In this document: piece after piece, positions 701 to 14,119 of the stretch
Numbering within the stretch: the first letter of the stretch is position 1
Layout of the letters: each line of letters opens with the position of its first letter
Source of the DNA: an uncultured Gemmatimonadales bacterium
GTDB taxonomy: Bacteria; Gemmatimonadota; Gemmatimonadetes; Gemmatimonadales; GWC2-71-9
Direction: 5' to 3'
Length of the DNA stretch: 64,000 nucleotides
NCBI GenBank assembly: GCA_963779755.1
Contig: CAVZZO010000001.1
Span: 192,001-256,000, forward strand
Made by a program: the position numbers and the translations under genes
Notes under the pieces: generated by a model
Database searches by the model: none
Told to the model about the DNA's origin: nothing
What the model saw: only the letters and a program-made list of their open reading frames with translations

Positions 701-2209
701 TCAGTCGGGGCCGGTCGGGGCCGGGCGAGCGGGAGGTTCCGGGGTGCCGATATCCAGCTCCTCCCGGGTGGCGAGGCGGGGCAGCGTCCGGTCCGGCTCG
801 TGGGCCGGCGAAAATGCGACCACCGCCTCCGCCGGCAGCAGGTGGCGGATGCCATTGGCGTAATACTCCAGCAGAGGTCGCTGCTCCGGCAGCACCAGCA
901 GGGTCTCCCCCTCGGCCACGACCAGCCGGCGGAGATGGAACATCCGCCAGGCCCGGTCCCAGACGTCCGCGATGGGAATGTCTCCCCGAACCAGCCGCGC
1001 GTTGAGTGAGCGCAGGGTATCGCGCAGGTCGTCCATCCGCTCCAGCAGCCGGGAACGGCTGACGGCGCTGGAGCCGAACGAGAGTAGCGCCGCGGCGGCC
1101 AGCGGCACCGGGGTTACCGGCACGACCGCGCCGATTTCCCGCATCAGCAGTTCGCCCAGCCGTTGCACCCAGGGCAACCGCTCGGCGCGGGGCAGCGCCA
1201 GCACTCCGGCCGGTTGCCGTCCCACCCAGTCCCGGGCGGAGACGGGTGTTCCAAAAGTCACGGCCGCGCGCCCGTAGCGGCGCAGCCGCCCGGTGAGCAG
1301 GCGCGCGAGATTGGTCAGGAGATAGGCCGTGACCGTGGCAAGCTGCCGCGCCCGGCCCGGGAGACGCCCCCCCACGATCCGTTCCCGGATAAGGACACGG
1401 TCCTCCAGCACGCGGTCGTAGTTGATGCCGACGGGAATGAACCAGAGCCCGCGCTGAAAGGCCGGGTCGCGCAGACTGCCCAGCAGATAGTCCAGCAGCC
1501 CCAGCTTGGGCGGCCGCAGCGCGCCGTCGCGCGTGAGGCCGCCCTCCAGGAAGATCCCCTGTGTCACCCCGTTGCGGGTGATGAGCTGGACATACCGCTC
1601 CAGCACCGTGTGGTAGAGCGGTTCGCGGTAGCGCCGCCGCACGAAATAGCTGCCGAAGCTCTTGAAGACATACTCCAGCGGCCACACCCGCGCCCATTCT
1701 CCCACCGCATAGCTGATGCTCACCACCCGTGCCAGCACATAGGCCACGACTACGTAGTCGGCATTACTGCGGTGGTTCATGACGTAGACCACCACGTCCT
1801 CGCGGGGGATCCGCTCCAGCGCCTCGCGGTCTTCGTAGGCAATGGACGAGCGATACAGCAGGTTCAGGACCAGCCGGCTCAGGTTATAGCCCAGCCGGTA
1901 GTAGGAGAGCACGTTGAAGAAGGGGACGATCTCGTCGATATAGCGCACCACCCGGCGGCGAACCGCTTCCGGGGAGGTGCCGCTGGCCCGGGCACGTGCC
2001 GCGATGGCCTCGAGCACGGCGGAGTCGGCCAGCAGCTCGGCCTGGATATGCCGCCGGGCCACCAGCTTGTAGCGGTCCAGCCGGGCCCGGAACTGGCGCA
2101 CCGCGCGGCGGCCCATGCGCCGCAGCCTCCGCCGGAGCAGGCCGAGCGCCAGCAGACCCAGCACCAGGACCGCGCCGCCGGCCGCCAGCCAGCGCCAGGA
2201 ACCGGTCAC
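701..2209 (-). CDS. Glycerol-3-phosphate/lysophospholipid acyltransferase (PlsB/PlsC superfamily)
   Basis: NHRSNADY (HxxxxD) and FLEGGLTRDG motifs, plus an N-terminal TM helix. Confidence 0.85.
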   Translation of the reverse strand: MTGSWRWLAAGGAVLVLGLLALGLLRRRLRRMGRRAVRQFRARLDRYKLVARRHIQAELLADSAVLEAIAARARASGTSPEAVRRRVVRYIDEIVPFFNVLSYYRLGYNLSRLVLNLLYRSSIAYEDREALERIPREDVVVYVMNHRSNADYVVVAYVLARVVSISYAVGEWARVWPLEYVFKSFGSYFVRRRYREPLYHTVLERYVQLITRNGVTQGIFLEGGLTRDGALRPPKLGLLDYLLGSLRDPAFQRGLWFIPVGINYDRVLEDRVLIRERIVGGRLPGRARQLATVTAYLLTNLARLLTGRLRRYGRAAVTFGTPVSARDWVGRQPAGVLALPRAERLPWVQRLGELLMREIGAVVPVTPVPLAAAALLSFGSSAVSRSRLLERMDDLRDTLRSLNARLVRGDIPIADVWDRAWRMFHLRRLVVAEGETLLVLPEQRPLLEYYANGIRHLLPAEAVVAFSPAHEPDRTLPRLATREELDIGTPEPPARPAPTGPD

Positions 2210-3243
2210 CCCATGGCGCCCGCGGACGAGTTGAGCGCATTGCGCTTGGCTTCCTGGTAGGCCATGCCGCGCAGCCGCGCGATGCGCACCCGGGTCGGCG
2301 GGTGGGAGGCGAGAATATCGCCCAACCGGCCCTCACGGTCGGCGATGTGCCGGTCGCCCGGGTCCACGATGCAGAGGTGGGCCGCGCCCCGCTTGATTGT
2401 CCGGGTGGGATCCGCCGCCGCCTCGAGCTTGTCCAGCGCCGATGCCAGCGCCATCGGGTTCCGGGTAAACTGCGCGCCGGTGGCATCGGCCAGAAACTCG
2501 CGCTTGCGGCTCACCGCCATGGCCAGGATGCGGGAGATGAGCGGCGCCAGGATCAGCGTGACCAGCCAGAGCGCCAGCACCAGGAGGCCCAGGGGGTTAT
2601 TGCCGCCGCGCCGCCCGCCGGAGCTGCGGCCGCCACTCACCCGGACACCCCCGCGCAACACCCGGCCCAGCCCGTCGTGCATCAGCACGATGGCGCCCAC
2701 CATCGCCGCCAGCAGCGTCATCAGGCGGATGTCCAGATTGCCGATGTGCGCCATCTCATGCGCGATGACGCCCTGCAGCTCATCTCGATTGAGCGTGCGC
2801 AGCAACCCCTCGGTCACCGCGATATTCGCGTGCCCCGCGTCGAGGCCGGTAGCGAAGGCGTTGGGATCGGGATCGGGCACGATCCAGATGCGCGGCCGCG
2901 GCGTGCCCGAGGCGATGGCCATCTCCTCCACTACGTTCACCAGCTGTTGCTGCTCCGGGGTATCGGGAGTGATCAGCTCCCAGGCACCGGTGGACCAGAG
3001 TACCCGGCTGGCGCCCCGCTGCCAGGAATAGAGGCAGACCACGGCGGCCGCCGCGCTCAGTACCAGGCCGATGAAGGGAACGACATGGTGGTACGCACCG
3101 GGGGGCGCGTCGCGAGTCAGCAGATAGGCGGCGAGATCGCCACCAAATCCGACCCAGGCAAAAAAGAGGATAAAGCCGGCGACCAGCCAGACCGACCGGC
3201 GGCGATTGGACTCCTGTTGCGCGAAGAGATTGGGCGCCGTCAC
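2206..3243 (-). CDS. htpX: M48 zinc metalloprotease, HtpX-like
   Basis: PNAFATG, IAHEMAH, SRKREFLAD and ASHPP motifs. GTG start overlaps the lemA stop (GTGA). Confidence 0.9.
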   Translation of the reverse strand: MTAPNLFAQQESNRRRSVWLVAGFILFFAWVGFGGDLAAYLLTRDAPPGAYHHVVPFIGLVLSAAAAVVCLYSWQRGASRVLWSTGAWELITPDTPEQQQLVNVVEEMAIASGTPRPRIWIVPDPDPNAFATGLDAGHANIAVTEGLLRTLNRDELQGVIAHEMAHIGNLDIRLMTLLAAMVGAIVLMHDGLGRVLRGGVRVSGGRSSGGRRGGNNPLGLLVLALWLVTLILAPLISRILAMAVSRKREFLADATGAQFTRNPMALASALDKLEAAADPTRTIKRGAAHLCIVDPGDRHIADREGRLGDILASHPPTRVRIARLRGMAYQEAKRNALNSSAGAMG

Positions 3244-3812
3244 GCCTGCGGCTTGTTCATGGAGAGATCGACCTGCGGCACCGCCCGCTCGGCCGGCTCG
3301 TCGATTTCCCACAGCTCCGCCGGCGTCGCCCGGGCCATGCCCGCCACCAGATTGGTGGGGAACTGCATCTGCCGGGTGTTGTACTCGGTGGCGACGTCGT
3401 TGTAGAGCTGGCGCGCAAACCCCACCTTGTTCTCCGTGCTGGTGAGCTCTTCCTGCAGCTGCGCGATGTTCCCGGTGGCCTTGAGATCGGGGTAATTCTC
3501 TACCAGGGCAAAGAGCCGCCCCAGCGCCTGGGTCAGCTCACCCTCGGCCCGCGCCGTTTCCTTCACGCCGCTCGCCGCTACCGCCCGGTTCCGGGCGGCG
3601 ATAACCGCTTCCATCGTGTTGCGCTCGAACTGCATGGCGCCCTTCACCGTATTCACCAGGTTGGGAATCAGATCGTGCCGCCGCTTGAGCTGCACGTCGA
3701 TCTGCTTCCAGGCGTTCAGCACCCGGTTCTTCAGCGCGACGAGGACATTGTAGGTACGGATCAGCCAGACCACCAGCAGCGCGAAGGCGGCGAGGAGAAT
3801 GAAGCCGAGCAT
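3240..3812 (-). CDS. lemA: LemA family protein
   Basis: NAWKQIDVQLKRRHDLIPNLV, ENYPDLKA and ARQLYND motifs. Classic lemA-htpX pairing. Confidence 0.95.
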   Translation of the reverse strand: MLGFILLAAFALLVVWLIRTYNVLVALKNRVLNAWKQIDVQLKRRHDLIPNLVNTVKGAMQFERNTMEAVIAARNRAVAASGVKETARAEGELTQALGRLFALVENYPDLKATGNIAQLQEELTSTENKVGFARQLYNDVATEYNTRQMQFPTNLVAGMARATPAELWEIDEPAERAVPQVDLSMNKPQA

Positions 3813-3878
3813 GTCGATCTCCCGGACTGAGGAAAGGAGTACTGTACCGCAACGGCGCACGCCGGGGGGCGTGGCCGG

Positions 3879-4529
3879 TCAGGCGTCCTCTCCTTCCACC
3901 GCGCGCGCGATCGCGTCCCGAATGGCCTCGGCCAGCGCCTGCTCGCCGGCGGGGCGGTGGAAGAGCGGATGGCGCTCGTCGATCAGCAGCTCGAGTCCGG
4001 CGTCCAGCGGCAGCCGCCGGCAGGTGCTGGGCCGGGCAGGGCTCCCGGTCGCTTCGGCCGGCCGGGCCCAGCCGGCCATCACCCGCCCCACCTTGCCGCG
4101 GGGCACCTCCTGTGGCGGCAGCAGCAGACGGTCCGGCGGGGGGAGGCCTGCGCCCAGCGCGGCAGCCACCCGGCGCTCGACCACATCGCCGCCCTGGTCC
4201 TGGAGGTCGCGGGTAATGGCGCCCAGCGTGGCTCCCTCCATTTGGCGGAGCTTGATCGCCAGCACCTGGAGCAGGTGGCGGTAGGTGTAAATCGCGGCGG
4301 TACCGCGGCCCTCGGGCGGGCTCACCAGCCCCTGGGCTACGTAGAACCGGATGGTTCGTTCGGTGGGCCGGGCACGCGCGGCGGCATTGAGAGGAAACAC
4401 CCCGGAGGCACCGAGGATAGCCCCCGCGAGCGCACTCAGATCGCGCAGGCTCCAGGGCGCCAGCGCCCGGTATTCGCGCAGCACCGTAATGGGATCGGGC
4501 GATGCCGGATTGGGGCGGGCGGCGGTCAT
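3879..4529 (-). CDS. MerR-like HTH transcriptional regulator
   Basis: TERTIRFYVAQGLVSPPEGRG..YTYRHL winged HTH. ATG overlaps the upstream stop. Confidence 0.8.
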   Translation of the reverse strand: MTAARPNPASPDPITVLREYRALAPWSLRDLSALAGAILGASGVFPLNAAARARPTERTIRFYVAQGLVSPPEGRGTAAIYTYRHLLQVLAIKLRQMEGATLGAITRDLQDQGGDVVERRVAAALGAGLPPPDRLLLPPQEVPRGKVGRVMAGWARPAEATGSPARPSTCRRLPLDAGLELLIDERHPLFHRPAGEQALAEAIRDAIARAVEGEDA

Positions 4530-4933
4530 GCCGACCCGTTGCTCTGCCGCGGCAGAGACTCGGTCTGCGCCGACAGTACCGTGGCGATCAGCGATTCCAG
4601 TTCCTTGAGGGCAAACGGTTTGGCCAGCATGGGCCGGCGGCGCAGCTCCTCCGGCCATTCATCGCGGCAGTGTTCCGGGTCGCCGCTCATGAATACCACC
4701 CGGCCCCGCAGCCGGGGCCAGCGCCGCACCAGGGCAAGGTACAAGGTATCGCCCGTCATCTGGGGCATGCGGACGTCCAGCAGCACCAGATCCACGTCCG
4801 TCTCCGACAGCAGCTCGTAGGCGGAATCGGCGCCCGAGGCCAGCAGCACTTCGTACCCGCACCACCGGAGCGCCCGGTCCAGGGCGTGCCGGATGCTGGG
4901 CTCGTCATCGATCACCAGCAGCCGCGTGCTCAC
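4526..4933 (-). CDS. Single-domain response regulator (CheY-like)
   Basis: LLVIDDE, LLDVRMP, FMSG and LAKPF motifs. Confidence 0.9.
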   Translation of the reverse strand: MSTRLLVIDDEPSIRHALDRALRWCGYEVLLASGADSAYELLSETDVDLVLLDVRMPQMTGDTLYLALVRRWPRLRGRVVFMSGDPEHCRDEWPEELRRRPMLAKPFALKELESLIATVLSAQTESLPRQSNGSA

Positions 4934-5721
4934 GATACCGCCTCCCGGGCCTGCTCGAAATAGCGCGACGTCACGATGGCCAGCGCATCCTCGGCCGACA
5001 GGGAGAGGCGCAACTCCCCGGCGGTCAGCCCGAAGACTTCCTTGAGATGCATCTGCAGGCTCCTCGCCTTGCTGTAACCCAGCTTCATCGCCACGTCCTC
5101 TACCGTATAGCCCGGATCCAGCAGCAGCCGGTGCGCGTACAACAGCCGCGCCAGCATCAGTACCACCTTGGGCGACGGCAACCCGCTGCGGGCAAACCAG
5201 CGCTCGCAGGTGCGCCGCTGCAGGCTGGCCCGGTCCGCCAGCGCCGACACGGTGGCGGCATCGGTGGGCGTGTGCAGCATTGCCTCCAGTGCCCAGCGCA
5301 GCTGCGGCGGTAGCCCCTTCAGCAGCCCGACGATGGCCTGAATCACCTTGCGGGAAGCGGTCTGCTCCAGCTCCTCCCGCAGTGCCACCCGCAGGGCCGG
5401 CGGGGAGTCGTCGAACCGGGTGAACACCGCCCGGCGGATCCCGATCCGCCCCAACTCCAGCAGCACCCCCGCCGTATCGGGCGACAGGGTGGTGTAGACC
5501 AGCAGCGGCAGCGAGGGGAAGAGAACCCGAAGCCGTTCGATCTCATGCGTACGGGGCTGCCCGCTGAGCAGCGGGTCGGCCACGACCATCTCGATCGGCT
5601 GGCGCCGGATGATCTCGATCACCTCGGCCCAGGCGGGCACCGTGACGAACGCATAGCGATCGGGCTCCGCAGAGCGCAACCGCTGGACACGATCGTCGGG
5701 AACCGCGGCCAGGAGCAGCAT
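4930..5721 (-). CDS. AraC-family regulator with N-terminal receiver-like domain
   Basis: C-terminal TVEDVAMKLGYS..LQMHLKEVFGLT AraC signature. N-terminal VVADP..LPLLVYT is receiver-like. Confidence 0.85.
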   Translation of the reverse strand: MLLLAAVPDDRVQRLRSAEPDRYAFVTVPAWAEVIEIIRRQPIEMVVADPLLSGQPRTHEIERLRVLFPSLPLLVYTTLSPDTAGVLLELGRIGIRRAVFTRFDDSPPALRVALREELEQTASRKVIQAIVGLLKGLPPQLRWALEAMLHTPTDAATVSALADRASLQRRTCERWFARSGLPSPKVVLMLARLLYAHRLLLDPGYTVEDVAMKLGYSKARSLQMHLKEVFGLTAGELRLSLSAEDALAIVTSRYFEQAREAVS

Positions 5722-5723
5722 CG

Positions 5724-5760
5724 TGTCGCAAAAACGTCCCTTGCTGTCGCGAAACAGGCC
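5724..5760 (+). promoter_or_regulatory. Tandem direct repeats with 21-bp period, putative AraC-family binding site
   Basis: TGTCGCAAAAACGTCC at 5724 and TGTCGCGAAACAGGCC at 5745, between the AraC gene and the divergent peptide gene. Confidence 0.55.
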
Positions 5761-5832
5761 TAACAGGAAGTCGGCGTCGCCGCAATTTTGCGGCACCCCT
5801 GACGCCCTCCCTGCCGTTAAAGGAGTCGAGTC

Positions 5833-5973
5833 ATGCTTCTCAGCAAGCGCCTGGTCCTCGCCCTGCTCGTCGTCGCGATGTTCGGCGTGTCCGCCTGCTC
5901 CGACGCTACCGGCCCTCGTCCCGATAGCCAGCCGTGCGAGCAGCAGGGCACGGGTGGCAGAACCTGCCAGTGA
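5833..5973 (+). CDS. 46-aa secreted lipopeptide (not in ORF track)
   Basis: AAGGAG RBS. Sequence MLLSKRLVLALLVVAMFGVSACSDATGPRPDSQPCEQQGTGGRTCQ, with basic N-region, hydrophobic core and lipobox-like VSAC. Third codon positions are GC-rich. Confidence 0.75.
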   Translation: MLLSKRLVLALLVVAMFGVSACSDATGPRPDSQPCEQQGTGGRTCQ

Positions 5974-5974
5974 T

Positions 5975-7240
5975 CTAGACGCCTACCTGGGCAAGTTCCC
6001 GGATCCCCTCGGAAATCTGCACGACGGCCGGAGCCTGGACCGCTTCGGCCGTCTCGTTTCTGGTATGCCAGCTGTCGGGGCAGGGTTCGAGCCCGCGCAG
6101 CACCCGGTCGATCCGGAAATACCACTCGTTGAGGCCGTGCGTCTCGGCCAGGGTCAGCGCCTCGCGCATGACGGAGCGGGCGCGCTGTTCGCGCCCGAAG
6201 CGGGCCAGGCCCACCCCCATCTTGTAACGGTAGTCGATGGCCATGCTGGGCGGCATGCGATTTTCCACCAGGCGCGCCTCCTGCCGGAACCGCTCGTACG
6301 CCACCCGGTTCCCCACCGCCGACTCCAGATCCATCAGCTCAAGATAGACGTTGGCCCGGATAAGGAAGCCGGCATCACCCCGCAGCACCATTTCGAAGCA
6401 GTGCCGCGCCGCATCATAGGCCCCGACGGCCCGCAACGCGATGCCCAGGTCGCCCAGGACACGGCTGCGCTGGATGGGATCGCGCAGGCGCTTGAGGGCT
6501 TCGTACTTGGCGACCAGATCGCCGAAGATATCCCCCTGCACCGCCAGCACCACCGAGAGGTCGAACCAGGCACGGCCCTGCACCTCGAGCAGCGGCTTGC
6601 TGTCGCAGTCCTGGATGATCCGCTTCAGCGCCGCCTGGGCCGACGACAGGTTCCCCCGGCCCCGGAGCACGTTGGCCTGGCCGATCCGGGCCAGCATCAC
6701 CTCGTTCAGTTCGCCGCAGCGCTGCCCGGCCTGCTCCGCCATCCCGTAGGCTCGTCCGGCGGCATCCCAATGGGCCAGCGCCCGATGTATCCGCCCGATG
6801 AACAGGGCCAGGGTGGGCAGCTCACCCACGGGAATCCCGGACCCATACGTATGCGCGGCCAGCCCCAGCATGTCCAGCGCCTCTTCCAGGCGGCCCTCAT
6901 GCTCGAGGTAGTAGGCGAAGGCCAGGGCCGCCATCCGCATGATGGTGGCGCGGTGCCGTTCTTCGATGCAGACCGATTCGACGATGCCGAGCAGGTGGGC
7001 CGCTTCCGGCTGATCGGAGGGAAGCTCGCGGAGAAAGCGCTGGGTGCTCTGCAGCTGCCAGTTGAAGCCTTCGACCTCATCCGGCTCGCTGCTCAGCCGC
7101 AGCCGGCGGTCGAACAGGCGGGCGACAAGATAGGCTCCCAGCGCGGTGCGGGACCCCAGCTCATTGCCCTGTTCGCGCTCGGCGCGGGCGCGATCCAGAA
7201 AAGAGGAGAAGCCGACAAGATCCGCCGAAGGCGGTCTCAC
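5975..7240 (-). CDS. Tetratricopeptide-repeat protein
   Basis: Repeated TPR-like helices (YLEHEGRLEEALDML, LGIALRAVGAYDAARHCF, MGVGLARFG). Start uncertain: GTG 7240 chosen, the ORF extends to 7408. Confidence 0.75.
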   Translation of the reverse strand: MRPPSADLVGFSSFLDRARAEREQGNELGSRTALGAYLVARLFDRRLRLSSEPDEVEGFNWQLQSTQRFLRELPSDQPEAAHLLGIVESVCIEERHRATIMRMAALAFAYYLEHEGRLEEALDMLGLAAHTYGSGIPVGELPTLALFIGRIHRALAHWDAAGRAYGMAEQAGQRCGELNEVMLARIGQANVLRGRGNLSSAQAALKRIIQDCDSKPLLEVQGRAWFDLSVVLAVQGDIFGDLVAKYEALKRLRDPIQRSRVLGDLGIALRAVGAYDAARHCFEMVLRGDAGFLIRANVYLELMDLESAVGNRVAYERFRQEARLVENRMPPSMAIDYRYKMGVGLARFGREQRARSVMREALTLAETHGLNEWYFRIDRVLRGLEPCPDSWHTRNETAEAVQAPAVVQISEGIRELAQVGV

Positions 7241-7578
7241 CGCAAAGAGATCGTCGGGACAGAACACCCGGGCACTCCCGGAGTAGGCGTGGCTCAGCAC
7301 AGTCTGGCTAGTATGCCCTAACCCGCAGTGCGCGGCAAGCCCCGTTGGGGGAAGGGAGCCCGCCAGCCATCGCAACCGCTCTCTACGGTTGGCCCCTGCA
7401 AAACGCACGAAGTATGCCTCCTGCGACAGGGCTCCGCCATTAACAGCCAGCTGCTTGCCCCGGCGCGAGATAAGCCGGGAATCCCTGCGGCGGCACCCTG
7501 GCCCTGCTCGCGTTTCAGCGCCGCCTCCTGCAACAACCGGATGACGGACCGTCGCTCGCCGCCAGCGACATTGTCCCC

Positions 7579-8001
7579 ATGCGCCGTGGCACTACGCTGA
7601 CCGAGCTTCTGCTGGCCCTCGTCGTCCTGGCGGTTACGGCGGCCCTGGTCGTGCCGAAAGTTGCACCCTGGGTCGACCGTGCCGCGGTCGAACGCAGCGC
7701 CAGAGCCATCGCCAGCGCCCAGACCAGAGCTCGGCTGGAGGCCGCCGCGCGCGGAACCGTTCTCATCATGACGATCGGCACCGACAGTCTCCGACTCGAG
7801 GACCGGCTGGGCGCCAGGCTGTGGCAGGCGCCCGGTCCGGGGGCGGCGAACGTCGCGCTGGCACCGGCCGGTCACCAGGTCACCTACGCTCCCTCGGGAC
7901 TGGCCCTCGGTTTTTCGAATGTTACCCTGCGACTCTCCCGCGGATCGGCTCAGCGCCGGGTGGTCATCTCCCGGATGGGAAGAGTCCGGGTGCTGCCGTG
8001 A
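7579..8001 (+). CDS. Prepilin-type GspH/FimT-like minor pilin
   Basis: RRG|TTLTELLLALVVL type IV prepilin signal (E at +5). C-terminal VVISRMGRVR is typical of FimT/GspH. Confidence 0.85.
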   Translation: MRRGTTLTELLLALVVLAVTAALVVPKVAPWVDRAAVERSARAIASAQTRARLEAAARGTVLIMTIGTDSLRLEDRLGARLWQAPGPGAANVALAPAGHQVTYAPSGLALGFSNVTLRLSRGSAQRRVVISRMGRVRVLP

Positions 8002-8021
8002 GCCGGCCGCCCTGTCCCCGG

Positions 8022-8402
8022 TTATCGCACCGATTCAAGCCCATAGCGGCGGATCTTCGCCAGCAGAGTAGAGCGGGCGACCCCCAGCTGGAGTGCCGCC
8101 TGCCGGCGATTGCCCCCCGTGTACCGCAGCATGTCAGCGATGTGCCGGCGTTCCGCCTCTTCCAGCGACAGAGGCGCGGCGGGAAGGCGCGGCGCGAGTG
8201 CGGCTCGCAGTGCGGCAAGATCGACGTCGGGCAGGCCCGGGTCCAGGAGCACGAGGCGGAATGCGCCGCCGGCCACCGCCTGAGCGGCTTCGGCGCCGTC
8301 GTGGACGAGCATCGTCCGGTATCCGGCAGCCTCGAACATGGCTCGCAGTTGTTCCTGCCGGAGGGGGTCGCGCTCCAGCACCAGCACGGTCGCCTCGCTC
8401 AT
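8022..8402 (-). CDS. Short receiver fragment fused to Fis-type HTH
   Basis: LVLLDPGLP followed by LEEAERRHI..GGNRRQAALQLGVARSTLLAKIRRYGL. Confidence 0.85.
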   Translation of the reverse strand: MSEATVLVLERDPLRQEQLRAMFEAAGYRTMLVHDGAEAAQAVAGGAFRLVLLDPGLPDVDLAALRAALAPRLPAAPLSLEEAERRHIADMLRYTGGNRRQAALQLGVARSTLLAKIRRYGLESVR

Positions 8403-11950: not shown

Positions 11951-12529
11951 ATGCTTCGATCACTCTGGGCGGCGCTCTCTCTCCGCCGGACGGCCCGGCT
12001 GCCCGGCCGCCGCTCGCTCCTGCCGACGGCGCTGGCCATACTCCTCGGTCCTCCCCTGCTGGCGGCGCAGGCCCCCGCCCGAGCGCCCCTCGGCATCTTT
12101 GGCTTTGCGCCGGGAGACAGCCTGCGGCAGATCCGGGCCGCCCTGTCGGCCCGCCACGGATCGGGCTGGGTCTGCCGCGGCTCGCGGGCAGACGCCTCCG
12201 TCGTCGAATGCCGGGGCAGCTTTCCCGATCCGCTGCATCGGAATCCGGTCACATTGTGGCTGTCGGCGATCGACGGGCGGGCGGGCATCCTGACGCTGCA
12301 GGCGATGCTGACGCCCGCGGGGCTGGCGGAGTGGCAGGACGGCTTGTCGGCCAGCTACGGCCCGGCCCCCGCCGAACGGCGGGGCCCGCTCCGTATGATG
12401 CAGTGGATCCGCAGCGGACGGATGCTGCGCCTCACCTGGCACGCCGGCGCCCGGGGGATCGAAGCGTCGATCAGCCTGGTTGACGGCGGCATCCTCGACC
12501 GATGGGGACGGCCGCGGAGCGGGGGCTAA
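11951..12529 (+). CDS. Hypothetical secreted protein
   Basis: Signal-like LAILLGPPLLAA|Q and a Cys pair. Start uncertain. Confidence 0.55.
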   Translation: MLRSLWAALSLRRTARLPGRRSLLPTALAILLGPPLLAAQAPARAPLGIFGFAPGDSLRQIRAALSARHGSGWVCRGSRADASVVECRGSFPDPLHRNPVTLWLSAIDGRAGILTLQAMLTPAGLAEWQDGLSASYGPAPAERRGPLRMMQWIRSGRMLRLTWHAGARGIEASISLVDGGILDRWGRPRSGG

Positions 12530-12831
12530 CCCGCGAGCCGCACCAGAAAGCTTCCTTCGGTGTCTTCCAGCTGATAGTCCCGCACCACCTTCCCTTCCTC
12601 GGCCAGCCGGCGCAGCAGGGTCCGTACCCGGCTGCGGACCGGGGCCCGACCGCCCGAGCGCCCGCGGCCCGTAATGAGGCGCACGATGGCTCCCGGGCGC
12701 ACCCGGGCCTGGCTGCGGAGAAACTGCTCGGCGGAATGCGCGGCTTCGAGCACTCTCTGGCCGTGCAGATCGAATACCATGGCGGGCGGCCGGTCGGTCC
12801 AGTCGAGCATCGTGTCGCTCCGGGGATCCAT
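12526..12831 (-). CDS. Stand-alone Smr domain protein
   Basis: FDLHG, LITGRGR and GSFLVRL motifs. Confidence 0.85.
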   Translation of the reverse strand: MDPRSDTMLDWTDRPPAMVFDLHGQRVLEAAHSAEQFLRSQARVRPGAIVRLITGRGRSGGRAPVRSRVRTLLRRLAEEGKVVRDYQLEDTEGSFLVRLAG

Positions 12832-13003
12832 GGGGCGTCAGTAGTCGCCCCGATTGCGCGTGTCAGGAGAAACTACTAACCTAGGGGGCCCTGGGTCAGT
12901 ATCGACAATCCGACACCGCGCTCGATACGCAAGCGGCTGCATGCGCCTGCGCGGCGAACACCGGATCTCGATTATTCTGCTTCCCGACCTCAATTCCGTT
13001 CCG

Positions 13004-14119
13004 ATGCCACGCCGTCTCTTTCCGCTGGCGGTCCTGCTGGCTCTTGCTGCCTGCGGTCGCAGCCACAGGCCGATACAAATCGGCATTGCGGGGACGTTCA
13101 GCGATTCGCTGACGGTCTCCATGCGGCATGCCGCGGAGCTCGCCGCCGAGGAGATCAACGCGACCGGCGGGATCGGCGGCCGCCGGCTCGAGCTGGTGCT
13201 GCGCGATGACTACGGCAGCGTGGACTCGGCGGTCCGGGTGGCAACCGAGTTGTACCGGAGCGACGTGGTCGCCGTCATCGGTCACAGCTTTTCCGCGCCG
13301 ACGCTGGCAGCCGCCCCGGTCTATAACGGCGGCGCGCATCCCCTGGTACAGATCTCTCCCTCCGCCTCCTCGCCCGACATCAGCAACGCCGGCCGGTATA
13401 CCTTCCGCGTCTGCCCCAGCGACCTGGCGCACGGCAGCGTCCTGGCGCGCTGGGCACGCCAGCACCTGGGCTACGAGCGCGGTGCCATTCTGTATCTGAA
13501 CAACGGCTACGGCCGCGGCATCCGGCAGACCTTCTCCGGCGAATTTACCCGGCTGGGCGGGCAGGTCCTCTCGATGGATCCGTATCTCGGCGATACGCCC
13601 GAAGTGGATCCCTATCTCGACCGTATCGCGGCCCGGCAGCAGGCCCAGTTCATCCTCCTCGCCGGCTACCAGCCGGACGCCACCGTGGCCATTCGCGATG
13701 CGCGGGCGCGGGGCATCACGGTTCCGTTCCTGGGCGGCGACGGGCTGGAACAGATCTATCAGCTGGGTCCGCTGGCCGAAGGCACTTACGTAACCAACGC
13801 CTACTTCGAGAGCATCGCCACACCCGGCAACCGACAGTTTCTCCAGCGATACCACCGGCGCTTCCCGCGGGGAGCGACGCCCAACCAGTCGGCCATCGGG
13901 ACCTGGGACGCATTAATGCTGCTGCGCGAGGTCATCGCCCGAACCGGTACCGACCGTGCCGCCATCCGCGCCGGGGTCGCGGCCGTCGGCTCCACCCAGC
14001 CGGCCTACCAGGGGCTGACCCGCCGGATTGCGTTCGACCAGCACGGCGATCTGGCCGATCAGAATGTGTTCATCGGGATGGTGCGCGGAGGTCGTGTCAT
14101 TCCGGTGAGCACGCAATGA
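13004..14119 (+). CDS. LivJ/LivK-type periplasmic binding lipoprotein
   Basis: LAAC lipobox, AAEEINATGGIGGRRLEL, VIGH and YTFRVCPSD motifs. Confidence 0.9.
   Translation: MPRRLFPLAVLLALAACGRSHRPIQIGIAGTFSDSLTVSMRHAAELAAEEINATGGIGGRRLELVLRDDYGSVDSAVRVATELYRSDVVAVIGHSFSAPTLAAAPVYNGGAHPLVQISPSASSPDISNAGRYTFRVCPSDLAHGSVLARWARQHLGYERGAILYLNNGYGRGIRQTFSGEFTRLGGQVLSMDPYLGDTPEVDPYLDRIAARQQAQFILLAGYQPDATVAIRDARARGITVPFLGGDGLEQIYQLGPLAEGTYVTNAYFESIATPGNRQFLQRYHRRFPRGATPNQSAIGTWDALMLLREVIARTGTDRAAIRAGVAAVGSTQPAYQGLTRRIAFDQHGDLADQNVFIGMVRGGRVIPVSTQ

Follow-up and report, generated by a model that had tools for sequence, protein, structure and literature searches.

A conserved receiver-AraC regulator, lipoprotein-type propeptide and tetratricopeptide repeat cassette as a candidate peptide signalling circuit of Gemmatimonadales

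A stretch of 64,000 nucleotides from an uncultured Gemmatimonadales bacterium (GenBank assembly GCA_963779755.1, contig CAVZZO010000001.1, positions 192,001 to 256,000; the whole stretch is called the window, and coordinates without a contig or locus name count from its first letter) carries a gene for a 46-residue propeptide between a divergent AraC-type regulator gene and a convergent gene for a tetratricopeptide repeat (TPR) protein. Our preferred reading, to which we give a probability of roughly 45%, is that these genes form an autoinducing peptide circuit of the RRNPP or Rap-Phr kind in a diderm phylum, conserved across the Gemmatimonadales. The strongest argument against a purely structural lipopeptide is a sequence pattern in relatives, whose precursors can carry two to four copies of a seven-residue unit that differ from each other only by synonymous codons. 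A first-pass annotation had described the anatomy of the cassette from the letters alone (open reading frame (ORF), ribosome-binding site, lipobox, tail, AraC gene, repeats and a gap of 1 nt between the stop codons), and every element was recovered where it had been placed. By its gene order, a CheY-like receiver that was missing from that description is also part of the unit. The features of the cassette are:

4526..4933, minus strand: single-domain CheY-like receiver (Pfam Response_reg, 61.1 bits), its start overlapping the AraC stop by 4 nt.
4930..5721, minus strand: regulator of 263 aa with receiver fold and AraC-type helix-turn-helix (HTH) domain (Pfam HTH_18); the longest ORF extends to 5796, and the start is placed by where the alignments to relatives begin.
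5724..5744, no strand assigned: predicted operator repeat 1, TGTCGCAAAA..., abutting the regulator start codon.
5745..5765, no strand assigned: predicted operator repeat 2, TGTCGCGAAA..., 21 bp after repeat 1; family consensus ATGTCGCAAAaCgGcCCCTattTGTCGCAAAangGcCCTaaa.
5781..5792, plus strand: promoter-like element GCAATTTTGCGG, low confidence; its position is conserved, with AGATTG in relatives.
5820..5825, plus strand: Shine-Dalgarno sequence AAGGAG, 7 nt before the peptide ATG.
5833..5973, plus strand: propeptide gene, 46 aa, divergent from the regulator gene.
5833..5898, plus strand: signal peptide (residues 1-21) and invariant Cys22, lipobox V-S-A-C.
5935..5967, plus strand: loop Cys35-EQQGTGGRT-Cys45, homologous to the C-terminal ExQGxNN unit of relatives and presumed to be the active part.
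5975..7267, minus strand: cytoplasmic TPR solenoid protein, 430 aa, convergent with the peptide gene; the longest ORF spans 5975-7408.
6023..6053, plus strand: terminator-like hairpin for the peptide transcript, inside the 3′ coding region of the TPR gene; not a family feature.

Judged by its conservation, the ORF at 5833-5973 is a real gene. We scanned 103 loci, 20 of them from the related-genome search, three from the AraC query and 80 from the TPR-profile query. In 96 loci an automated scan called an ORF of the lipobox type, 40-73 aa long, with the AraC gene on one side and the TPR gene on the other; a 97th (L021) was found by eye, giving 97/103 Gemmatimonadales loci with the peptide ORF. 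Where no ORF was called, the TPR gene lies at a contig end (L067 and L101), a 4-kb contig ends before the site (L023), or the TPR gene stands right before a MerR-like gene, with receiver, AraC and peptide genes all absent (L007 and L012). No peptide was detectable in the very distant pair L014/L109. A separate Gemmatimonadaceae set contained an equivalent ORF in 21 of 27 loci, and the other six have <360 nt upstream of AraC. The first-pass annotation had proposed to look for small ORFs beside homologous TPR genes, and they are present in both sets.

The small gene also varies as expected of a coding sequence. Over 95 distinct nucleotide sequences, the entropy at the three codon positions was 1.09, 0.84 and 1.41 bits. 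Single-nucleotide codon differences counted in frame were 43367 synonymous versus 24448 non-synonymous (64% synonymous), compared to 12915/46275 (22%) and 5780/53610 (10%) in the two shifted frames; genome pairs in these counts are not independent, and the contrast between frames does not rest on independence. GGAG/AAAGG-type motifs occur in relatives at the position of the Shine-Dalgarno sequence of the window. A profile of the peptide matched 871 small proteins at E ≤ 0.01 in a large protein collection; none of them has a Pfam domain, and any name given is 'hypothetical protein'. A match of the peptide to the NCBIfam lipoprotein model PG1828 was rejected (16.7 bits versus a cut-off of 50, signal peptide only).

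The product of the gene reads MLLSKRLVLALLVVAMFGVSA, C22, SDATGPRPDSQP, C35, EQQGTGGRT, C45 and Q, and starts with an n-region containing Lys/Arg, a hydrophobic core and the motif V-S-A-C22. In 96/96 peptides a Cys directly follows the hydrophobic core and is preceded by small residues (STA, SAA, TTA, VSA). The signal peptide was judged by this pattern of n-region, hydrophobic core and cleavage site. It is the lipobox pattern of bacterial lipoproteins, which predicts lipidation at Cys22, and two LspA (Peptidase_A8) genes are present in the genome of the window. The residues after the Cys are C-[AS]-D-x-T-G-P in the window and C-T-R-[TS]-D-A-T-G-P-S in most relatives. A T[GA]P or [ST]GP motif within 12 residues of the Cys was also found in 31 of the 323 lipobox-type ORFs of at least 120 aa in this genome, with mature starts such as CSDSTGP... 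and CSSDKTGPS.... Since this motif recurs on large lipobox ORFs, it supports a lipoprotein-type handling of the peptide; since it is generic among the lipoproteins of the genome, the specific information should lie in the tail, the last ~8-12 residues. Occurring on about one tenth of the large lipobox ORFs, the start C-(x)-[SA]-D-x-[ST]-[GA]-P may be a lineage-specific sorting or linker signal for lipoproteins in Gemmatimonadales; we know of no description of such a lipoprotein start.

The peptide alignment separates the tails into two classes that can be aligned with each other. Linear tails, 72 of 96, end with [FL]-E-x-Q-G-[SAG]-N-N and contain one QG-type unit in 60 cases, two in nine, three in two and four in one. 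The other 24 tails have a loop flanked by Cys residues, which reads C-E-x-Q-G-[ST]-G-G-R-(x)-C in the clade of the window; other forms are C-[ED]-x-x-N-x-x-T-C and, in Gemmatimonadaceae, C-P-[VI]-x-x-G-S-[SQ]-x-C. The Cys loop is found in both deep branches and may be the older, ancestral form. One genome (G014, loci L010 and L144) accounts for 1/19 TPR-positive genomes, 1/96 peptides and one row of the peptide alignment, and no conclusion hangs on it.

To compare unit copies within genes, we used 12 multi-copy genes, namely 11 of the 12 linear multi-copy precursors and the two-copy Cys-loop precursor L003; the list did not include L051, and in L009 the unit pattern had no match. Between the E-x-Q-G-S-N-[NT] copies of the same gene there were 52 codon differences, 52 of them synonymous and 0 non-synonymous. 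The residue x of the unit is constant across the copies of one gene and varies among genes (S, N or T). In L048, Ser is encoded by TCC in one copy and by AGT in the other; no synonymous step interconverts these codons, so gene conversion does not account for the copies being identical. L043 and L048 differ at x (N versus S) in both copies, while the rest of the peptide is common to both, with AraC proteins 98% and TPR proteins 91% identical. Copies that differ synonymously only are the pattern expected of a precursor that is cut into several identical short peptides, and this argues for a short peptide that is released, as from a multi-copy pheromone precursor.

A second line of evidence is the region between regulator and peptide gene. 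A repeat finder located TGTCGCAAAA at 5724 and TGTCGCGAAA at 5745, 21 bp apart, and an inverted partial copy at 5786-5796. When the upstream regions of the relatives were aligned by the peptide start, the repeats took the form TGTCGCAAA-N12-TGTCGCAAA. The strict pattern TGTCGC-N15-TGTCGC was present in 78/96 loci and a relaxed form in 87/96, compared to 0.085 per 96 in shuffled sequences. From the start of the first copy to the ATG the distance is 91-122 nt (median 110), and 109 nt in the window. In 57/96 loci AGATTG lies about 50 nt before the ATG, and a scan with the sigma-70 consensus gave 0 sites. From its spacing, the second repeat appears to lie at the position of the −35 region; the first abuts the start codon of the regulator, which places a repeat in the regulator's own leader. 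Relatives of lower GC content keep the 21-bp period with a different sequence, for example three GATAGGAAAA-like units or TGTCATAAA/TGTCACAAA. AraC-family monomers bound in tandem use two direct repeats of 21 bp, as at AraC I1-I2. These data support the prediction that the 21-bp repeats serve the peptide promoter as a conserved operator, and the suggestion that they are AraC-type sites at this promoter, already made in the first-pass annotation, gains from their conservation in 78-87 of 96 loci.

A search of the 4.2-Mb genome for the strict tandem pattern gave two sites only, the one in the window and C1:13507-13536. The latter (TGTCGCAAATCGGTCCTTCGGTGTCGCAAA, minus strand) adjoins an IS30-type transposase gene (12419-13372) and has a truncated AraC-like start (MPQKALLVSVPRH...stop) on its other side; the region C1:13300-13700 resembles the remains of a third cassette disrupted by an insertion sequence. 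On contig C3, a paralogous peptide gene has a degenerate copy of the tandem repeat (TGTCGCAAT-N12-TGTCGTAAA) 109 nt upstream.

At the other end of the peptide gene, 1 nt separates its stop codon from that of the TPR gene. The distance between the two stops is ≤10 nt in 57/96 loci, and in 40/96 the peptide and TPR genes overlap by 4 nt. The hairpin was tried as a terminator of the whole family and rejected, as a comparable hairpin was present in only 11/96 loci versus 1/96 control windows. With stops this close or overlapping and a hairpin in so few loci, the convergent transcripts must often overlap at their 3′ ends. Antisense interference between the peptide and TPR transcripts is possible.

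The regulator matches HTH_18 with 53.1 bits (Pfam cut-off 33.6). Its longest ORF covers 4930-5796. However, 36 of the 45 tblastn high-scoring segment pairs listed (from 45 of the 93 loci with a long segment pair) begin at residues 25-28, and a stop codon within the repeat closes the upstream frame in relatives, so that the regulator most likely starts with the ATG at 5721 and has 263 aa. An AlphaFold2 (AF2) model (pLDDT 92.2) has a (beta-alpha)5 domain at residues 1-118, followed by an AraC domain of seven helices. The best Foldseek matches were the response regulators FixJ, PorX and RcsB and the HupR receiver (TM-score 0.77 on target), and the AraC-type DNA-binding domain 3oio was matched as well. 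Among 42 regulator sequences D49 never varies and T77 hardly does; in our reading of the model, D49 closes beta3 and R102 takes the place of the receiver Lys. Pfam Response_reg did not match the N-terminal domain, and no kinase gene is in the conserved core. We read this domain, on the strength of the model, as a divergent receiver that is possibly independent of phosphorylation. The 'AraC regulator' of the first-pass annotation is therefore right in its DNA-binding domain, which scores above the HTH_18 cut-off, and incomplete as a plain AraC protein, since model and Foldseek indicate a hybrid of receiver fold and AraC domain. All 41 genomes searched contain a paralogous receiver-fold/AraC gene, which scores about 110-130 bits against the profile. 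In the genome of the window it lies at C1:314604-315515 and has no TPR or peptide neighbour; its presence in all 41 genomes points to this architecture being a wider Gemmatimonadales family.

Relatives of the TPR protein have 428-434 aa, which is why we place its start probably at the GTG at 7267 (430 aa) and not at the end of the longest ORF at 7408. The protein has no signal peptide in the family consensus and no HTH domain in Pfam. Its AF2 model (pLDDT 90.0, pTM 0.84) is an all-helical solenoid of 22 helices, corresponding to about 10 repeats. TPR_12 matches 40/45 family members, and the protein of the window itself scores just below the Pfam cut-offs. Foldseek returned generic TPR proteins together with Rap of pLS20, NprR and RapJ. 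VIA-align, which is independent of Foldseek, aligned Rap of pLS20 with a Z of 21.6 over 326 residues (40-380 of the model, N-terminal helices included), followed by phi105 Rap with peptide (20.7), NprR (20.3), RapI (19.9), RapH-Spo0F (19.7) and AimR (15.4). The modelled fold is compatible with a Rap-like receptor and does not identify one. Among 8000 scored candidates the family had 444 matches at E ≤ 1e-3; a library of representatives at 50% identity gave 4432 clusters at E ≤ 1e-3, 963 at 1e-10 and 308 at 1e-30. Each of the 150 best-scoring representatives stands alone and has ≤447 aa, and none of the longer TPR forms (829-2365 aa) appeared at E ≤ 1e-5, which is weak evidence. In a protein atlas the TPR protein falls into Gemmatimonadota-only clusters with no name more specific than 'TPR'. 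It evolves faster than the regulator (mean pairwise distance 0.45 versus 0.26). In a metagenome-assembled genome (MAG) based on long reads, the TPR gene is split into two overlapping ORFs (L021 1885-3248) by a frameshift or sequencing error, with peptide and AraC genes intact.

All related loci come from Gemmatimonadales, Gemmatimonadaceae or Gemmatimonadota MAGs, except one contig of 3.4 kb (L082). This short contig holds a complete, typical cassette and was binned as Thermoanaerobaculia; an error of binning is more probable here than gene transfer. Scans with single proteins identified no cultured carrier; they returned only MAG records and one unrelated Sulfobacillus match. The TPR query found a match in 19/41 related genomes (own genome included), that is in 12/24 of the window's own family f1, in 6/8 of the Gemmatimonadaceae (f2) and in 0/8 of family f3. 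AraC orthologues (>200 bits) and TPR matches co-occur in 16/41 genomes. In G033 an AraC-like gene (138 bits) adjoins the TPR match; the exceptions are G019, in which the AraC gene lies at a contig start, and G007 and G024, which have the TPR gene only. The CheY-like receiver gene adjoins the AraC gene in most loci and also in 3/5 f2 cassette loci that were fetched with wide flanks. Across eight f2 loci with 10-14 kb of context, AraC, peptide and TPR genes stand together, with the receiver gene in three, and none of the flanking genes of f1 was found nearby. One f2 genome has two full cassettes, whose TPR proteins are 65% and AraC proteins 82% identical. The persistence of the core where the flanks change supports the view that REC-AraC, peptide and TPR genes are a conserved functional unit, and the earlier treatment of the three genes as one cassette holds in this distant family.

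The genome of the window contains a second peptide-TPR pair, without an AraC gene (L020, C3:537335-541303; peptide at 1330-1473, TPR ORF at 1294-2697). The TPR ORF here no longer ends at the usual stop position and continues for 180 nt across the peptide gene in antisense. The mature peptides of L020 and the window are nearly identical, while their DNA is ~80% identical with many synonymous changes. No closer orthologues of the paralogous TPR gene were found in 40 relatives.

From these parts we propose the following circuit. Two regulator molecules would bind the tandem repeats; as the second site reaches the −35 region, binding would activate the peptide promoter, and as the repeats lie in the regulator's own leader, it would also autoregulate the regulator operon. 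The propeptide would leave the cytoplasm through Sec, receive a lipid at Cys22 and be cut by LspA. Its C-terminal unit would then be clipped off, and multi-copy relatives would yield several identical heptapeptides. The short peptide would accumulate, be taken up again and be bound by the TPR protein in the manner of Rap or NprR. Binding would change the hold of the TPR protein on the receiver-fold domain of the regulator, on the CheY-like receiver, or on both, and so close the autoinducing loop. More tentatively, this would be a pheromone system of the Gemmatimonadales that is independent of, or anciently diverged from, those of Firmicutes: a lipoprotein-type precursor with 1-4 heptapeptides, or a disulfide-loop version of it, would be released, re-imported and read by a TPR receptor controlling a receiver-fold/AraC activator and a CheY-like receiver, and the x in ExQGxNN would define species-specific 'pherotypes'.

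Several observations weigh against an autoinducing circuit. The fold match is unspecific, as LGN (Z 22.4), MalT domain III (Z 20.7) and generic TPR proteins (Z 17-20) score in the same range as Rap, and neither Pfam nor profiles gave a sequence-level link to RRNPP families, the profiles finding only generic TPR proteins. G007 (L012) and G024 (L007) keep the TPR gene without AraC and peptide genes. In close relatives a wider block is syntenic (GspH-like pseudopilin in 90 loci, REC-Fis in 83, LemA in 76, HD protein in 39), so that adjacency there proves little. The TPR paralogues in the genome of the window are only 27-28% identical beside nearly identical mature peptides, which is not what orthogonal receptor-ligand pairs predict. 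Peptide-core distance tracks TPR and AraC about equally: partial Mantel tests gave r 0.265 for core versus TPR given AraC (0/2000 permutations reached this value) and r 0.247 for core versus AraC given TPR (18/2000), with related genomes not independent and one core (L029) mis-extracted, and within the linear class the values were 0.21 (TPR) and 0.075 (AraC). The co-variation of TPR protein and peptide that the first-pass annotation had looked to is thus there as a correlation, but it does not single out the TPR protein over AraC. Release and re-import would be harder than in Firmicutes because of the lipid anchor, the probable disulfide loop and the outer membrane, and the Cys loop may be ancestral, while known RRNPP signals are, to our knowledge, linear. 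The earlier proposal of an RRNPP-analogous module is upheld in part, by the conserved unit, by the genomic signature described below and by the multi-copy units; binding of the peptide by the TPR protein, the disulfide loop as ligand and signalling between cells are its hypothetical parts.

The main rival is that the lipopeptide is an output, for instance an adhesive, protective, contact-display or antimicrobial peptide of the envelope or surface, and that the TPR protein modulates the regulator on an intracellular or phosphorelay cue and never meets the peptide. We consider this possible but on the whole unlikely. It fits with an operator that in this genome stands only at peptide genes, as expected of a dedicated effector gene, with the generic lipoprotein start in the N-terminal half of the peptide, with the persistence of the TPR gene without peptide in G007 and G024, with the envelope theme of the f1 operon, which runs on into MerR-like, LemA and M48 peptidase genes, and with a covariation that does not single out the TPR protein. 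On the other hand, a tethered structural peptide can hardly account for 2-4 tandem heptapeptide units that are identical only at the amino-acid level; moreover, peptide and TPR genes travel as a pair, and the specific mature part has only 8-12 hydrophilic residues.

A partner switch coupled to secretion appears improbable. Here the TPR protein would chaperone the unexported propeptide, and export would free it to co-activate or release the AraC regulator. Such a switch needs no re-import, and the adjacency of AraC-type and TPR genes with a small exported substrate between them would suit it, as would a TPR protein without signal peptide. But chaperones of this type have ~160 aa and three repeats, compared to 430 aa and ~10 repeats here, genes of a secretion system are absent from the vicinity, and monitoring a substrate needs no multiple identical C-terminal units. 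We regard it as very improbable that the small gene encodes the precursor of a ribosomal natural product or bacteriocin, with leader and repeated core, which its neighbours merely regulate: repeated core units and the Cys-loop class would agree with this, but the conserved core (receiver, AraC, peptide, TPR) has no gene for a modifying enzyme, for a dedicated exporter or for immunity, the 'leader' is a signal peptide of the common Sec/lipoprotein kind, and the cores consist of seven hydrophilic residues. That the small ORF arose by chance in a GC-rich intergenic region and was kept only through synteny of its neighbourhood is scarcely credible, for although GC-rich genomes (68.6% GC here) have many spurious ORFs and the flanks of close relatives are syntenic, the frame-specific synonymous bias, the conserved start, Shine-Dalgarno sequence, signal peptide and Cys, the presence in a distant family with different flanks, the 871 profile matches and the synonymous-only differences between unit copies all contradict it.

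Among known systems, Rap-Phr of Bacillus is close to the proposed circuit in several respects. Both have a small propeptide exported by Sec with a short C-terminal unit as presumed signal, and an adjacent cytoplasmic TPR protein of ~380-430 aa without a DNA-binding domain of its own. Rap acts on Spo0F and ComA, and receiver-domain targets are available in the cassette as well, which encodes the CheY-like receiver and the receiver-fold/AraC regulator. Rap is also among the best fold matches of the TPR model, N-terminal helices aligned too. In contrast to Rap-Phr, there is no detectable sequence homology, the Gemmatimonadales host is diderm, the peptide has a lipobox signal with an invariant Cys and, in the window, a Cys-flanked loop, the peptide and TPR genes are convergent instead of co-directional, and the signal gene has its own tandem-repeat operator.

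Receptors of the RRNPP group that carry an HTH domain share with the cassette a plausible autoinduction of the signal gene, but DNA binding in the cassette would reside on a separate AraC-family protein, the TPR protein having no HTH domain in Pfam. The AraC/XylS activators (AraC at I1-I2, RhaS, XylS) resemble the regulator in HTH_18 and in the two 21-bp direct repeats upstream of a promoter and in a divergent leader; unlike theirs, its N-terminal domain is, in the model, a receiver fold and not a cupin or sugar-binding domain. TPR chaperones work together with AraC-type activators of type III secretion in the pairs MxiE-IpgC and InvF-SicA. The cassette likewise pairs an AraC-family regulator with a cytoplasmic TPR protein and a small exported partner. 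However, its TPR protein is ~2.5 times larger (430 aa and 22 helices, compared to ~160 aa and three TPRs in a secretion locus for type III chaperones), no secretion-system genes are nearby, and the peptide uses Sec. Enterococcal sex pheromones are cut from lipoprotein precursors, the signal coming from the signal peptide itself; the cassette would share the lipoprotein-type precursor, while its selected part is the C-terminal end of the mature chain.

Known RRNPP systems belong to Firmicutes and their mobile elements, according to PMC10075063, which also gives a five-point genomic signature including a propeptide of 10-100 aa, a Sec signal, a TPR receptor of 250-500 aa and directly neighbouring genes. 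All five points are found at the locus. The propeptide has 46 aa (40-73 aa in relatives), the receptor is a TPR solenoid of 430 aa, and 1 nt lies between the stops of the neighbouring genes; the Sec signal is recognised by pattern, and its lipoprotein (SPII) type corresponds to the 'relaxed' tier of PMC10075063. By the same five points the cassette is like PlcR-PapR, NprR-NprX, PrgX, Rgg-SHP and AimR-AimP, with NprR (Z 20.3) and AimR (Z 15.4) among the fold matches. No description of this cassette was found in the literature on peptide quorum sensing in Gemmatimonadetes or on Gram-negative RRNPP systems, which was represented mostly by abstracts.

If the preferred reading of an autoinducing circuit is true, peptide quorum sensing would extend across the outer-membrane divide into an abundant phylum of soil diderms, in a new wiring, with DNA binding on a separate receiver/AraC partner and a precursor of the lipoprotein type. 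Should the TPR protein turn out not to be the receptor, an unnamed family of small proteins (871 matches) and a TPR family (308 clusters at E ≤ 1e-30) remain, and the cassette gives unusually clear evidence for a seven-residue unit as the selected product. The module is compact, with four small parts, an operator of 42 bp and a heptapeptide, and is thus directly testable.

The surroundings of the cassette add some further features. Rfam gave 0 matches at E ≤ 1 over 4500-7600, and PADLOC had no match for the AraC, peptide, TPR or MerR-like proteins. Four SBP_bac_5 genes, of a kind that could serve re-import by an oligopeptide permease, were counted in the genome, an observation of presence only with no link to the peptide. 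On the AraC side, the last conserved gene of the operon in family f1 is the following:

3879..4658, minus strand: MerR-type HTH gene (Pfam MerR_1, E 3.7e-08).

By tblastn a MerR-like gene lies 3′ of the receiver gene in most of the loci L021-L103; it was not found near the cassette in the distant family f2. Genes for LemA, an M48 peptidase and an acyltransferase follow 3′ of it on the same strand, with LemA and the M48 (HtpX-like) peptidase at 2206-3860. In G007 and G024 the TPR gene stands directly before the MerR-like and LemA genes, and the MerR-like protein may, as this order hints, be a further partner of the TPR protein. The M48 membrane peptidase has the same direction of transcription and is, speculatively, a candidate for the enzyme that processes the peptide. 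On the other side of the cassette (7579-8402), a lone GspH-like pseudopilin gene and a short REC-Fis regulator gene are divergent from the TPR gene.

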